A stretch of 64,000 nucleotides of DNA from Fidelibacterota bacterium (GTDB taxonomy: Bacteria > Fidelibacterota > Marinisomatia > Marinisomatales > TCS55): positions 1-64,000 of the forward strand of contig JBHHTW010000005.1 of assembly GCA_046861385.1 (NCBI GenBank). Reading direction: 5' to 3'. Position numbers: made by a program. Below, piece by piece: positions 18,001 through 24,000 of the stretch (the first letter of the stretch is position 1; every line of letters starts with the position of its first letter).

Positions 18001-21000
18001 GCGTCTTCGCCCCATTCTGGTTCATCTTTCCGGCAGGGGATTCGGTGCAGATCCGGAAGATCTCATGAATGCCGGATTGGCAGTTGAACTAATGCACAAT
18101 TTTACTCTCGTTCATGATGATATTATGGATAATGATGAAACACGTCATGGCCAACCAACTATTCATAAACATTTCAGCGTCAATAAGGCTATTTTGGCTG
18201 GTGATAGTATTTTTGCATTGGCTCAGCTAATGATTGGAAAAGTGAAATCCTTTGATGCATTCCAGGCGTTCAATACTGCGTCTTTGTCAGTGTGTGAAGG
18301 TCAAGCTTATGATTTAGAATATGAAAATGATTCGCAAGTTAGTCTGGAGCAATATCTGAATATGATCGGGAAAAAAACAGGAAAATTATTAAGTATCTGC
18401 GCGGAATTGGGAGCAATCCTTGGACATAAGGATGAATTGATACGAAATGAGATGAGAAATTATGGAATGAATTTGGGTATGGCATTCCAGGTGCAGGACG
18501 ATTTACTTGAAATTTTTAGCGATTCAGAACAAATGGGTAAAAGTTTAGGCAGCGATGTTTCTGCCGGTAAACAGACTATTATGACACTGTTAGCTAAAAA
18601 ACATGACGGCTGGGATGAAATCGAAAGTATTCAGGAAAATATTACTTTAAAGTTGAAACGAATGCGCAGGTTTTTTATTGAAACTGGAGTGAATAAGAGA
18701 GCTGAAGAAATGGCAAACCAATTTATTCAAAAAGCGAAATCATCCTTATCCATTTTACAGGATGATCATCAAAAAACATTGAATCAATTTACGGAACAGG
18801 TATTAAACAGGACTTACTAGTGGACATAAAATCAATTGATACACAAAACATGAGAAAAGCTATATTTGACTTTCCAGCTCATCTAATAGATGCGTTGACC
18901 ATTGGTAGAAATTTCACACCAAAGAACATTTTTCAAGACATTCAAAATATTGTTGTTGCCGGCATGGGTGGTTCTGCCATAGGTGGCGATGTCTGCCGAT
19001 TATTGGTTTCCAATGACCTGACTGTTCCATTGGTCGTATGCCGGAATTATACATTACCAAACTGGGTGAACAAACATACTTTAGTCATCTGCTCATCCTA
19101 TTCCGGAAACACGGAAGAATCCCTATCAGCGTTTGAGAATGGGCAAGAAAAGGGTGCGATGTTATGCGGTATATCGACCGGTGGTATTTTGACGGAAAAA
19201 ATGCAAGCAATTGGTCTGGATGTTATTTCAATTCCTGCGGGACTTCAGCCGAGAGCTGCTCTTGCTTATTCAGTTGTTCCGATGCTTTTTCATCTCATTA
19301 ACCAGAGATTGATTAATGATTCGATATTAGATGATATTCAAAATGCTGCTGAAATGCTTATGGGGAAGAGAGAAGGCTATCGTACTGAAAATAGACAAAA
19401 TCCCACCTATCAATTGGCTAGTAAAATTTTCGATACCATTCCCATTATTTATGGGTCATCAGAAACCACAGCAATTGTAGCGTTACGATTAAAAGGACAA
19501 TTTTGTGAAAATGCAGATATGCTGGCTTATCATAACGAATTACCAGAGATGAATCATAATGAAATTGTCGGCTGGGAAAACAACTCAGATGTGTTTAATC
19601 ATTTTAGTGTTTTGTGGATTAAAGATGAAAAGGATCATCCTCGTGTACAATTAAGACAGGAAATTACTCGACAAATTATTGAGGGGAAAAATACTAACCA
19701 GCACATTATACGTGTTGAAGGATCCACTCCCAACTCACGATTTTTACATTTGATCCATTTTGGAGACTGGGTGAGTTATTGGTGCGCGATTTTCCATGAT
19801 ACCAATCCTTCTCCCGTAAAACCGATTATGCGTTTAAAAAATAAATTATCAGAAAAAGAGTAAAAAAATATTGTTTAGGTCTAAAATCGAAGTCTATATT
19901 TAATCAGGAAATAATTCCATGATACCGGTCAAAGTTCATAAAATATCATTCCATCCACCCAGCCGAAGCTACGCGGTGATCTTAAAAGAGATTGAAGGAG
20001 AAAGACGTCTGCCGGTCATCGTTGGTGCATTTGAGGCACAATCTATTGCACTGGCTCTTGAATTCATGGAGACTCCGCGACCATTAACACATGATCTTGT
20101 TGGGAACATTATTAAAGGAATTGATGGCAAATTAAATACAATCAAAATTACTAAATTGAAAGATGGTGTTTTTTATGCACGCCTTGAAATTAGCATTAAA
20201 GGCACCGGTCGGCGCTCCATTGATTCCAGACCCAGTGATGCTTTAGCGATTGCTCTACGTCTCCAAGCGCCGATTTTAGTTGCGGAGTCTGTGATGGCTG
20301 ATGCCGGAATGATGCCGGATATTCAAGGTGAAAATGAAAAGGAACTTGACATCTCAGAATGGATTCCGTCTTTAAGCTCTTTAGAGAAAAAACTCCGGTC
20401 AGCTATTGATGAAGAAAAATATGAATTAGCTGCAAAAATCAGGGATCAGATAAAAGAGATGCACACTTAAGATTGTAGTATTTCTAAAGCATGTCGCGCT
20501 GCAGATTGCTCAGCAGACTTTTTTTCCATCCCAATCCCTGAAGGGTAAACTTCACTTCCAATTGAAACATGAACTTCAAACATCTTCTGATGATCAGGAC
20601 CCGATACGTCAATCATTTGAAATTTTGGATTTTCAATATTTTTTGCGTGACAATATTCTATTAATTGACCCTTATAATTAACTTTTTTCCATGCTTCCAT
20701 TCTATTTACCCAAATAGTAGAAAGCACTAATCTTCTTGTTGGATTTATCCCACCGTCAAGATACATTGCCCCGACGAGCGACTCATAAAGATTCGCCAAT
20801 TGTTTATCTGCAACTTTTTCGTTATTTAAATTGACTGTCCCATCCACATTGAAATGATCTAAAAGATTTAACATAGAACCCATGGATGCCAGAAAAGATT
20901 GTTGAACCAATGCAGAACGTTTTTTCGTTAAGACTCCTTCATCACCCTCCGGAAATTCTTTCATTAATTCACCACTGATAATAATATCAATGACAGCATC

Positions 21001-24000
21001 ACCCAAAAATTCCAGGCGTTCGTAATTATACTTAGGATCCGGGCTTACGGAGCGATGTGTAAATGCCTGACATAAAAAAGCATAGTCAGAAAATCTATAA
21101 TGAATCTGTTGTTCGAGAGCGGTATAGGTGGATGTTTTTTTTCGGAGTGCGGTTCGAAGCGACCTCAGAAAGCCCACGTTATTCAATCCATTTTTTTAAA
21201 ACCAATACGGCATTGTGTCCACCAAAACCAAATGCATTCACCATGACATAATTACATTCATAATCTTGCGCTGTATTCGGCACATAATCTAAGTCGCATT
21301 CTGGATCCGGTGTTGTATAATTGATAGTAGGGGGGATCCGATTATGCAATAACGATTGGACACAGGCAACACTTGCGATGGCTCCACTGGCACCCAAAAG
21401 GTGCCCCGTCATTGATTTAATTGAACTTACTTTCAAATCATCGGCATGTGTTCCAAAAACGGTTCGAATGGCTGCAGATTCAGATTTATCATTAAAAGGC
21501 GTGGAGGTGCCATGAGCGCAAATATAATCAATATCAGTGGGTTCTGCATTGGCGTCGTTTAAAGCAAGTTTGATTGCTTTTACTGCTCCAGCTCCACCTT
21601 CGGCAGGTTGGGTAATATGAAAAGCATCGTCAGTGGCACCGTATCCGCTTATTTCTGCTAATATATTTGCACCACGGGAACGGGCATGATCCAATGATTC
21701 CATGATTAACATCCCGGCTCCTTCGCCCAAGACAAAACCATCACGATTTTTATCAAAGGGACGGCTGGTATTTTCCGGTGTATCATTACCTGAAGAGGAT
21801 AATGCTTTCATGTTGGCAAATCCAGCAATAGTCAGAGGTGTTACTGACGCTTCACTGCCTCCCGTAATCATAATATCTGTTTCACCATATTGGATTTTAC
21901 GGAATGCCTGACCGATAGCATCTGATGCGGAAGAACATGCGGATATAACTGTGTAATTAGGCCCCCTCAATCCAAATTGAATAGATATTTGTCCAGCGGC
22001 AATATTTGCAATCATTTTAGGTACAAAGAAAGGAGAAATCCGTCTGGGACCTTTCTCATGTAAAACAAGATGTTGGTCTTCCAGAGTTTGAATCCCCCCG
22101 ACACCGCTTCCGATAATAACACCGGCTCGATCCCTGTCGATATGATCCAATTCCAATCCGGAATGATTAATGGCTTCTTCAGCTGTAATCAGTCCGTAAA
22201 TGGAAAAGGGATCGAGCTTGCGGATATTTTTTCTGTCAAAATAGTCCTCTGCGTTGAAATCCGATAGCTCACCTGCGATTTTGACGCTAAAATCGGAAGC
22301 ATCAAAAGAGGTGATTTTTTTGACACCGCTTTTACCGGCCAATAGACCAGCCCAAAAATCGGAAACAGAGTTACCGTTGGGAGCAAGTGCCCCCAAACCC
22401 GTAATGACTACACGACGTTTCATCAAAATTATTGGTTGCTGTCAATATAGTCTACTGCAGCACCAACCGTCGTCATGGTTTCGGCATCTTCATCAGGTAT
22501 CTCAATGCCGAATTCTTCTTCTAACTGCATAATTAATTCTACAGTATCGAGAGAATCGGCTCCAAGATCATCCATGAAGTTTGCTTCAAGGGTAATCTGG
22601 CTTTCTTCGACGCCTAGTTTATCCATAACAACTTCTTTTACTTTATCGAGTGTTGAAGACATGTGTTTCTCCTATTTTATATCATGACCATACCGCCATC
22701 CACGGTCATGGTTTTTCCAGTAATATAACTCGCTTCTTCCGATGCTAGGAAGAGAGCCATATGAGCAATATCCTCCGGGTTACCAATCCGTCCGAGGGGT
22801 ATTTGTTTTATTATTTCTTCTTTAACTCCATCGCTTAACTCATGGGTCATATCTGTGGAAATATATCCCGGCGCGATGCAATTAACTGTAATGCCTCTAG
22901 AGGCTAATTCTTTTGAGGTCGCTTTTGTTAATCCAATTAAACCGGCTTTGGAAGCGGCATAATTAGCCTGACCGGCGTTCCCGGTTAATCCGACTACCGA
23001 TGAAATATTAATTATACGACCTGACCTTTGTTTCATCATGGGTCTGGTTACCGCTTTTATACCGTTAAAAGCGCCGGTTAGATTAATGGATAACACAGTA
23101 TTCCAATCCTCTGGTTTCATTCTCATAATCAATCCGTCACGGGTAATCCCTGCATTATTAACCAATATATCAATTTTATTATGTTCCGAAACGATTGAAT
23201 TTACAACATCGGTGAATTCATTGAATGCGGATACATCACAGGAAAATGCAGAAGCATTTGGTAGGGAACCTGCCACAGCTTTAACATCATTAATATTCCT
23301 GCTGATGCACACCACATGACTTCCTGCGTGAGAAAGCGCTTCTGCAATGGATTTTCCTATTCCTCTGGAAGCTCCAGTGACAATAGCGATCTTATTTGTT
23401 AAATCAAACACGGTGAAGCTGGTCCCATTTTTCAATACCGCTCGTTTTAATAGTTCGATCAATCCGTTTACAGAGTCCTTGCAATACACGCCCGGAACCG
23501 ACTTCCATAAAATGATCAATCTTATCATTGGCCATGTTCAAGATAGTCTGGCTCCAAAGTACCGGACTTTCCAATTGACGTATCATTGCAGAACGAATAT
23601 CTTCTGCTTTCGTGACCGGTTTTGCACTAACATTAGAGTAAATGGGGATCATTGCATCGATAATTTCGAATGATTCAATCATTTCTGCAAGTGTATCCCG
23701 TGCACTGCTCATTAGCGGGGAATGAAATGCTCCGCTGACATTCAATCGTTTTACAAGCCGTGCCCCACCATCTTTCGCTTTTGTCATTGCTTCTTCTACT
23801 GCCCTTATTTCACCGGATATGACCACTTGTCCCGGTGAATTAAAATTGGCCGCGACAACTGTGCCGGATGTCTCATCAATTAATTTTTTGATTGCTTGAT
23901 CGTCGAGTCCAATAATTGCAGCCATTGTCCCTGGATTCTCTTCACCGGCGTTCTGCATACTTTCTGCACGGGCTTTCACGAGTTTTAATCCCGTTTCATA

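Follow-up and report, generated by a model that had tools for sequence, protein, structure and literature searches.

Near-total absence of the GTPase Era, alongside RsmG and YihA, in Marinisomatota, a bacterial phylum with ordinary-sized genomes

The rnc locus

What can be concluded when the gene for RNase III is found without era at its side? In the window, by which we mean the whole 64,000-nucleotide stretch analysed, rnc occupies 20467..21177 on the minus strand and carries Ribonuclease_3 and dsrm domains (PF14622/PF00636/PF00035); judged by the ORF list and the start region, it starts with GTG at 21177, or alternatively with TTG at 21186, and its stop lies at 20467. It is the terminal gene of a fatty-acid run, placed directly after fabF, its upstream neighbour (β-ketoacyl-ACP synthase, 21179..22426, minus strand, PF00109/PF02801); the other genes of the run (ORFs at 22677..27010, minus strand) we take from their sequence features to be fabG-, fabD-, fabH-, plsX-, rpmF- and yceD-like. 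Convergent to rnc is a gene with a BFN domain and a UVR motif (19919..20470, plus strand; PF02577 at 5.7e-38, PF02151), and since the stop codons of the two overlap by 4 bases, there is no space for era 3' of rnc. ORFs and Pfam matches thus bear out the arrangement reported in the survey's finding, in which rnc is followed by a convergent BFN gene and adjoins no era; the same convergent layout recurs in genome G185.

The survey had also taken the missing rnc-era link as evidence, which does not hold. The fabF-rnc order is present in all three Era-positive Ignavibacteria-class genomes (L258-L260), and of the 84 era loci from outside E. coli, most of them inspected with flanks of at most 3 kb, none contains rnc. 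As Era-positive relatives share fabF-rnc, the neighbourhood carries no evidential weight. The likeness to the proteobacterial rnc-era-recO operon consists in the window gene being an RNase III orthologue; here, in contrast, rnc follows fabF with or without Era in the genome, and recO of the window's genome (G000) is located elsewhere, on contig C36, so that a co-loss of RecO can be rejected. The rnc gene merely marks the finding, and the finding proper is a genome-wide absence.

Absence of Era across the phylum

The assembly G000 (2.43 Mb, 104 contigs, 97.85% complete, 0.46% contamination) yields 12 matches to the Era profile TIGR00436 at E<=10, all within profile positions 1-182 of 270, such that none reaches the KH part; the sole match above the cut-off is Der/EngA, as the survey had stated. 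A protein of about 300 aa combining a G domain with a C-terminal type II KH domain is found in none of G000, G185, G131, G017, G029 and G071. In G071, an HMM built from Era-positive loci matches nothing beyond G domains, which brings the single-contig genomes without Era to five. Across the phylum, the full-protein profile, with 8 first-look candidates scored per genome, detects Era in 4 of 301 genomes (3 of 180 of high quality), and a KH-only model at E<=0.001 recovers the identical four and adds none. Era is present, by comparison, in 60/61 genomes of the comparison class (that of G303), in 10/10 control bacteria and in 77/121 small genomes of another phylum. The loss is near-total over 32 families with genomes mostly of 2-4 Mb; Era-less genomes reach 4.4 Mb at 93-97% completeness, and one family lies near 1 Mb. 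The phylum is widespread in marine and subsurface settings, with ordinary-sized genomes, and includes cold-ocean lineages. The absence of Era is thus genuine, and broader than the survey had described it. It extends to genomes of 3-4.4 Mb. The survey's label "free-living" calls for caution: the only described isolate of the phylum depends on cell-wall fragments of other bacteria (PMC11652737).

Whether the rare positives are native or contamination, a point the survey had left open, can largely be answered. Both PF01926 and PF07650 are present in G004, G019 and G232, whereas in G025 the contig breaks off within Era, leaving the KH part only. The gene of G232 lies on a flavobacterial contaminant contig. 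Two of the four are of Anaerolineae type and one is of Omnitrophota type. Joining the G004 and G019 proteins in one clade is rejected (p 1.9e-9), as is placing that of G019 with the FCB group (p 0.007); a position of the G004 protein with Bacteroidota/Ignavibacteria (FCB) Era is not rejected (AU test, p=0.09), while the best tree places it among Omnitrophota, for which transfer is the likely explanation. Judging from their foreign placement, the three non-contaminant genes were probably re-acquired by transfer. The loss itself would have been early, no later than the common ancestor of all Marinisomatota/Fidelibacterota. In G000, the neighbours that era and rsmG have in Ignavibacteria-class genomes are dispersed over different contigs, and a readable scar of an era or rsmG deletion is not found.

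New here is that RsmG/GidB and YihA are missing beside Era, a co-absence which the survey had overlooked. RsmG (TIGR00138) is found in 0/101 phylum genomes against 61/61 in the control class; with our own RsmG HMM, G071 yields no more than a PrmC-like methylase domain, and G000 no significant match. The gene that follows mnmG is not rsmG but a large, presumably mfd-like one. The 530-loop sequence is intact in 26/26 readable 16S genes. YihA is found in 0/151 phylum genomes. RsgA, which the survey had considered absent from the whole order, is patchy (98/301 phylum genomes) and occurs in 13 genomes labelled as the same order as G000; what stands is its absence at the family level, with 0/41 among the other genomes of G000's family, and families f1, f3, f4 and f5 are without it. 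By themselves, the absences of YihA and RsgA are unremarkable (76% and 84% of non-CPR genomes; figures given in PMC12641178).

How does this compare with known losses? Like the CPR/Patescibacteria, for which a joint loss of Era (19% of CPR), RsmG (8.5%), YsxC (13%) and RsgA (6%) is described (Amikura et al., 2025; PMC12641178), the phylum lives without Era and RsmG. According to that source, however, CPR also largely lack RimM, RimP, RsfS, HflX and RsmE, and often Der, ObgE and RbfA, whereas G000 keeps all of these, and instead of the very small genomes and shortened rRNA helices of the CPR type, the present phylum has genomes of up to 4.4 Mb and a 16S of full length (3/3). Era loss is likewise known in Chlamydia and Dependentiae, and Era is patchy in Planctomycetota, Elusimicrobiota and Synergistota (Gruffaz and Smirnov, 2023; PMC10582724), whose authors hold that the need for Era was overcome only by extremely genome-reduced groups; the 32 families seen here, mostly with genomes of 2-4 Mb, differ in this respect. 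As in the S. aureus era deletion, 30S assembly is evidently possible without Era, but that mutant is a sick, cold-sensitive laboratory strain (PMC6738653), as opposed to a stable, phylum-wide state that extends to cold-ocean lineages. Marinisomatota is absent from the phyla covered in PMC12641178, its name does not occur in PMC10582724, and our literature search found no report of Era loss for Marinisomatota/Fidelibacterota; Era loss as such is already known from reduced-genome groups.

Replacement, altered ribosome or overlooked gene

G000 and four single-contig genomes together contain 59 PF01926 matches. For 28 of the 30 loci examined in sequence, the best match is Der, ObgE, MnmE, HflX or YchF; two GTPases of 406-408 aa, with Era as best match in a small reference set, are HydF. 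The remaining matches, in open frames 347-898 aa long, are RsgA by position, or FeoB-, IF2- or elongation-factor-sized. KH_2 matches comprise only uS3, PNPase, KhpA, NusA and RNase Y-sized frames, a motif scan of G000 yields no further GTPase, and YqeH is found in none of the genomes inventoried; no paralogous replacement for Era emerges among the GTPase and KH_2 matches.

The remaining assembly apparatus is retained. RbfA is present in 113/121 phylum genomes sampled (81/82 of high quality), KsgA in 117/121 (82/82) and YbeY in 100/101 (74/74). G000 encodes IF3, LepA, bS1, bS21, uS7, uS11, bS18 and Rel, as well as RimM, RsfS, HflX, RsmE, Der, ObgE, RbfA and a RimP so divergent that it falls below Pfam detection. 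In 31/31 genomes, helix 45 and ACCUCCUUU are intact, as is the Era-bound 16S tail (GAUCA in 27, GAACA in 3, GAUUA in 1), which rejects a loss of the anti-SD/Era site; the 16S measures about 1549-1562 nt in 3/3 genomes. A loss of SD-led initiation is rejected as well, SD-like motifs preceding 27% of 1286 naively chosen starts against 9% after shuffling, a threefold enrichment, and so is a stringent-response co-loss, given a long Rel in 5/5.

Could an unrelated, lineage-specific factor have taken over the work of Era? In archaea and the eukaryotic cytosol, other KH proteins act on the small-subunit tail, and the intact Era site and the full set of partner factors look as if the step persisted; conserved unannotated proteins also exist, such as a basic two-repeat protein of 75 aa with 82% identity between G000 and G071. 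We nevertheless regard such a displacement as unlikely: there is no additional GTPase or KH_2 protein, translation initiation constrains the 16S tail regardless, KhpA is present in 5/5 Era-positive genomes and so is unsupported as a stand-in, and the 75-aa protein is not found in the Era-less single-contig G029, which speaks against a universal replacement. Subtraction of core genes left 394 of the 749 G000 proteins common to G071 without a match in the outgroup (1.02 of 2.19 Mb, 47%, of one genome), 280 of them soluble; those of <=420 aa among the candidates listed were judged by eye and 16 were scanned with Pfam. Within this limited comparison, no compensating replacement is seen.

Rather improbable, in our estimation, is that the ribosome itself was altered in h23/h24, uS11, uS7, bS21 or RbfA so that the platform closes without Era. 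The A-S-G motif of E. coli RbfA is missing from most alignment rows, yet it is also changed in two Era-positive Ignavibacteria-class rows; families f1 (3/3) and f3 (6/6) have GUGACAU as their h23 loop, yet of the 26 readable 16S genes the remaining 17, every one from an Era-less genome, do not show this change. RimP is indeed very divergent, but h24, the 530 loop and h45 appear ordinary, and the platform proteins are of usual size save for acidic tails on bS6, uS2 and bS16.

Divergent Era and MAG incompleteness, which the survey had allowed for, do not account for the absence. An Era that has diverged past detection is very improbable: the drift of RimP provides a precedent and just 8 candidates per genome were scored, but the KH-only model added no genome, all PF01926 matches in five genomes are accounted for, and the motif scan of G000 was negative. 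That era resides on unassembled or misbinned DNA is hardly credible, even with most genomes being MAGs and G000 lacking nearly all of its 16S gene, given the near-complete recovery of RbfA, KsgA and YbeY in high-quality genomes, the five Era-less single-contig genomes and the 60/61 of the comparison class.

A proposed Era-independent route to the 30S subunit

Which genes are missing, which assembly factors are kept, that the 16S tail is intact and that the few Era genes group with foreign lineages are direct observations. Beyond these, we favour with moderate confidence a scenario in which Era was lost early together with RsmG and YihA, with no paralogue replacing it, and 30S maturation proceeds by an Era-independent route, which suggests assembly simpler than in the textbook. 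Era is an essential assembly enzyme in E. coli, where subunits made under Era depletion do not take up uS11, bS21 and bS1 (PMC10582724); simply deleting era should therefore carry a cost, and one would expect some compensation. The same work reports parallel assembly routes in depleted cells, the factor order KsgA, RbfA, RsgA downstream of Era, and overlapping sites for Era and RbfA, and in S. aureus Era is not essential (PMC6738653). By analogy with these two organisms, RNase III, RimM, the divergent RimP, LepA, YbeY (for uS11 loading) and KsgA would act as usual, and RbfA would remain as the only dedicated assembly factor of KH-type fold that could keep helix 45 and the 3' tail in place. In the RsgA-less families, IF3 may displace RbfA, as it does in E. 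coli (PMC7145577). Slow growth, which we assume, could have rendered the speed and checkpoint role of Era dispensable, and Era would have been regained later by transfer in a few lineages.

More tentatively, and with doubt prevailing, this may be a large clade with full-size ribosomes that builds its 30S platform without dedicated small-subunit GTPases (Era; RsgA in f1/f3/f4/f5) and without m7G527, either through a factor peculiar to the lineage and so far undescribed or because the platform closes by itself. If true, it would constitute a second bacterial 30S assembly pathway, and two Era regains by transfer would be its natural reversions.

One practical consequence arises from era and rsmG both being flagged as bac120 markers: marker-based completeness estimates and trees of the phylum begin two genes short. 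For the biology, the phylum isolates the variable Era far better than the CPR, which lost many factors together, as RbfA, KsgA, YbeY, RimM, Rel, the anti-SD tail and a full-length 16S are all kept despite the loss. The exact molecular function of Era has been described as elusive (PMC10582724). With the natural contrasts between Era-less and Era-regained relatives and between RsgA-less and RsgA-bearing families, and with a cultured member of complete genome (PMC11652737), the phylum makes it possible to test why cells require Era.

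Era in the genome and across the phylum

How complete is the absence of Era from the Marinisomatota/Fidelibacterota? With the Era profile TIGR00436 (E<=1e-30), a match was obtained in 4 of 301 genomes of the phylum (3 of 180 in the high-quality subset, 3 of 104 genera), against 60 of 61 genomes in the class of the outgroup G303, which is labelled Ignavibacteriaceae. Because this search scored no more than 8 candidates in each genome, the same 301 were searched again at E<=0.001 with a KH-region model of Era built from 16 sequences; it returned the same four positives and added none. 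The near-total absence reported in the survey's finding is thereby upheld by two models, and we are highly confident that it is real and phylum-wide; the loss may even predate the phylum. The genomes being kin rather than independent, counts are given without p-values. The phylum is named here after the survey's finding and the source names attached to homologues of a G071 protein.

In the genome under study, G000 (2.43 Mb, completeness 97.85%), all 12 TIGR00436 matches fall inside profile positions 1-182 of 270, and the sole one above the cut-off is Der. Five GTPases scanned with NCBIfam are Der, MnmE, HflX, ObgE and YchF; IF2, LepA, TypA and EF-G were located with E. coli queries. Matches to KH_2, the C-terminal domain of Era, are uS3, PNPase, KhpA, NusA and an RNase Y-sized frame, identified by position and size; KhpA is found in Era-positive genomes too. 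Also present are two EF-Tu genes, a second EF-G and a SelB-sized GTPase (C72:83890-85089, C72:99306-100505, C96:721-2769, C72:38539-39213). Together with four single-contig genomes (2.1, 2.3, 2.8 and 3.4 Mb), G000 yields 59 matches to the GTPase domain PF01926: of 30 loci fetched, 28 are Der, ObgE, MnmE, HflX or YchF and two are HydF, the remaining matches lying in frames of 347-898 aa, assigned by position to RsgA or by size to other GTPases. The HydF genes, for the [FeFe]-hydrogenase maturation GTPase, belong to family f26 (L155 in G017, L159 in G029). An HMM from Era loci, which recovers Era at 5e-104 in outgroup DNA, gives nothing beyond G-domain matches in a fifth single-contig genome, G071 (0.97 Mb).

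Genomes of 4.4 Mb at 93-97% completeness (G007, G057) are among the Era-less ones. The description of the lineages as free-living holds with qualification, as one family has genomes of about 1 Mb and the cultured isolate depends on muropeptides (PMC11652737).

The rnc locus and the rare era genes

The gene for RNase III, rnc (20467-21177, minus strand), directly follows fabF and meets at its other end a convergent BFN gene, the two stop codons sharing four bases; the survey had described this arrangement, with no era at the 3' side, correctly. As a sign of era loss it fails: all three Era-positive Ignavibacteria-class genomes compared also have rnc after fabF, and rnc is present at only one of 85 era loci tested, that of E. 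coli. In Bacteroidia relatives era adjoins der, and in Ignavibacteria relatives it stands in a run with what we take to be acylphosphatase-, ispF- and lnt-like genes. Since rnc synteny is uninformative, the case for loss depends on the genome-wide searches. Unrelated to Era, the window encodes a putative 1237-aa S8-type peptidase (9128-12841, plus strand) with a presumably sorting-domain-like C-terminal tail, and its contig stops, outside the window, within the first bases of a 16S gene (G000:C15:111700), the remaining rRNA operon being unassembled.

Are the positives native or contamination, the alternative raised by the survey? Both occur. In G232, the contig with era (G232:C16, L131; 9.9 kb, N-rich) also has a second der, next to era. 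The product of this der shares 68% identity with a Flavobacteriaceae Der, against 93% between the genome's other Der and that of a congener; judged by these identities, the contig is flavobacterial contamination mis-binned into a Marinisomatota MAG. The era contig of G004 (308 kb) is native DNA, because its gene runs are syntenic to G000; the closest named relatives of this Era are Omnitrophota-labelled (64-65%), and no match occurs in G089, of the sister genus (86% complete). G019 and G025, of one genus, carry era with the same neighbours, and the closest named proteins are from Anaerolineae/Chloroflexota (60-64%; 8 of 120 listed carry an organism name); Era was not found in two other genomes of their family. 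In two Era trees, with 43 and 29 rows drawn from 81 Era ORFs and 240 listed proteins, these three types fall at three separate positions. By AU test, the grouping G004+G019 is rejected at p 1.9e-9 and G019+FCB at p 0.007. An IF2 tree was attempted with 30 rows, of which 27 were used, one being short and two lacking IF2; in it the G004 family nests beside f28/f30/f32 with support of 99-100, the deeper branches being unresolved. Regain by transfer is the simplest reading of the rare genes other than the contaminant, the Anaerolineae-type and the Omnitrophota-type alike; the G004 gene may instead have been retained, as G004+FCB is not rejected (p 0.09).

Other assembly factors and the ribosome

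Among non-CPR genomes, era is reported in 97.3%, rsmG in 97.7%, rsgA in 83.9% and ysxC in 76.2% (Amikura et al., PMC12641178). In that table, 30 factors exceed 90%, and G000 was checked for 23, leaving out five chaperones, YheS and YjgA. Absent are era and rsmG; present are YchF, ObgE, RsmH, LepA, RluD, Der, KsgA, RbfA, RsmI, RNase III, TsaC, BipA, YqgF, PNPase, RimM, RsmE, HflX, RlmN and RsfS. RlmB has a weak RlmB-like match only, and RimP (L125:5659-6156, C39) is divergent, in its usual place upstream of nusA but below Pfam detection, its best NCBIfam match (1e-12) being far below cut-off. Single E. coli queries found no RNase R, RlmH or HPF/RaiA in G000.

The absence of RsmG/GidB is as complete as that of Era: TIGR00138 found it in 0 of 101 genomes of the phylum (0 of 74 high-quality), 10 of 10 control bacteria and 61 of 61 control-class genomes, and an RsmG HMM of our own gave nothing significant in G000 and, in G071, no more than a PrmC-like domain. 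YihA/EngB is found in 0 of 151; among control bacteria it occurs in only 6 of 10, and among outgroup genomes in 3 of 5. RsgA, present in 98 of 301, is missing from f1 (0/41), f3 (0/30), f4 (0/25) and f5 (0/8); the order-wide absence suggested by the survey is contradicted by 13 genomes of that order that carry it. In G071 (L271-L310, L331-L339), searches with sequences from E. coli or G000 gave no match to RNase III, TypA, RsmB, RlmN, RimM or RimP; its ribosome-biogenesis set is thus very small, though unsure for the fast-evolving RimM and RimP.

All 31 genomes with loci read (30 of 53 16S pattern matches, plus G185) have an intact helix 45 and anti-SD, with an exact GAUCA box in 27; in three genomes the 16S measures about 1549-1562 nt. 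Of 1286 G000 starts, 27% have an SD-like motif ahead of them, the figure being 9% for shuffles and 13% for coding controls, and G000 has bS1, bS21, uS7, uS11, bS18, IF3 and Rel. In f1 (3/3) and f3 (6/6), GUGACAU replaces GUGAAAU in the h23 loop (loci L027, L215-L220, L223 and L224 for the two families together), at about A695C in E. coli numbering; both families lack RsgA, and the change is probably one event, a lead only.

Two small basic proteins were also noticed. One, of 75 aa with two internal repeats (G000:C37:15841-16065, outside the window; L332:12071-12316 in G071), is 82% identical between these genomes, 77% in G131 and 66% in G022, and was not found in G029, G303 or G316. It has no significant Pfam or PDB match; the named among its 1733 homologues are mostly Marinimicrobia/Fidelibacterota hypothetical proteins. 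It is a candidate nucleoid- or ribosome-associated protein. The other, common to G000 (C77:16928-17368) and G071 (L295:5086-5379) and without Pfam match, we take to resemble the Bacteroidota bL38/DUF4295 type.

A proposed route without Era

In E. coli, Era acts ahead of KsgA, RbfA and RsgA, its site on helix 45 and the tail overlaps that of RbfA, and it helps YbeY place uS11; without it, some particles proceed by parallel routes, the platform not stably closed (PMC10582724). Staphylococcus aureus is viable after era deletion (PMC6738653), and RbfA is displaceable by IF3 (PMC7145577). In sampled genomes of the phylum, RbfA is found in 113 of 121 (81/82 high-quality), KsgA in 117 of 121 (82/82) and YbeY in 100 of 101 (74/74). 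As all downstream factors are kept and no paralogue was found, we favour, with moderate confidence, a bypass: KsgA, RbfA and YbeY would suffice for 30S maturation, and IF3 would release RbfA in lineages without RsgA; this route, and any tie to slow growth, we infer. No replacement came out of an incomplete screen, and that an unrelated factor has taken over is unlikely; compensation inside the ribosome itself seems to us slightly less probable still, and artefacts behind the absence are very improbable.

Era loss is known in CPR, Chlamydia and Dependentiae, and Era is patchy in Planctomycetota, Elusimicrobiota and Synergistota. No report for the present phylum was found, most subscription journals and bioRxiv supplements lying outside the search; 'marini' is absent from the text of the Era review (PMC10582724), and the phylum from the text and supplement of the 2025 survey (PMC12641178). 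The pattern should be latent in public marker tables, because era and rsmG are both marked bac120. In a second control phylum of 0.7-3.5 Mb genomes, reached via G304 and probably Omnitrophota (the record says Planctomycetia), Era occurs in only 77 of 121 genomes of unstated completeness; thus a lack of Era is no rarity in uncultured lineages. The review holds secondary loss to be very difficult and confined to extremely reduced genomes (PMC10582724), a generalisation that the phylum-wide loss contradicts. Known already in kind, Era loss becomes, with this phylum, a case testable in culture.
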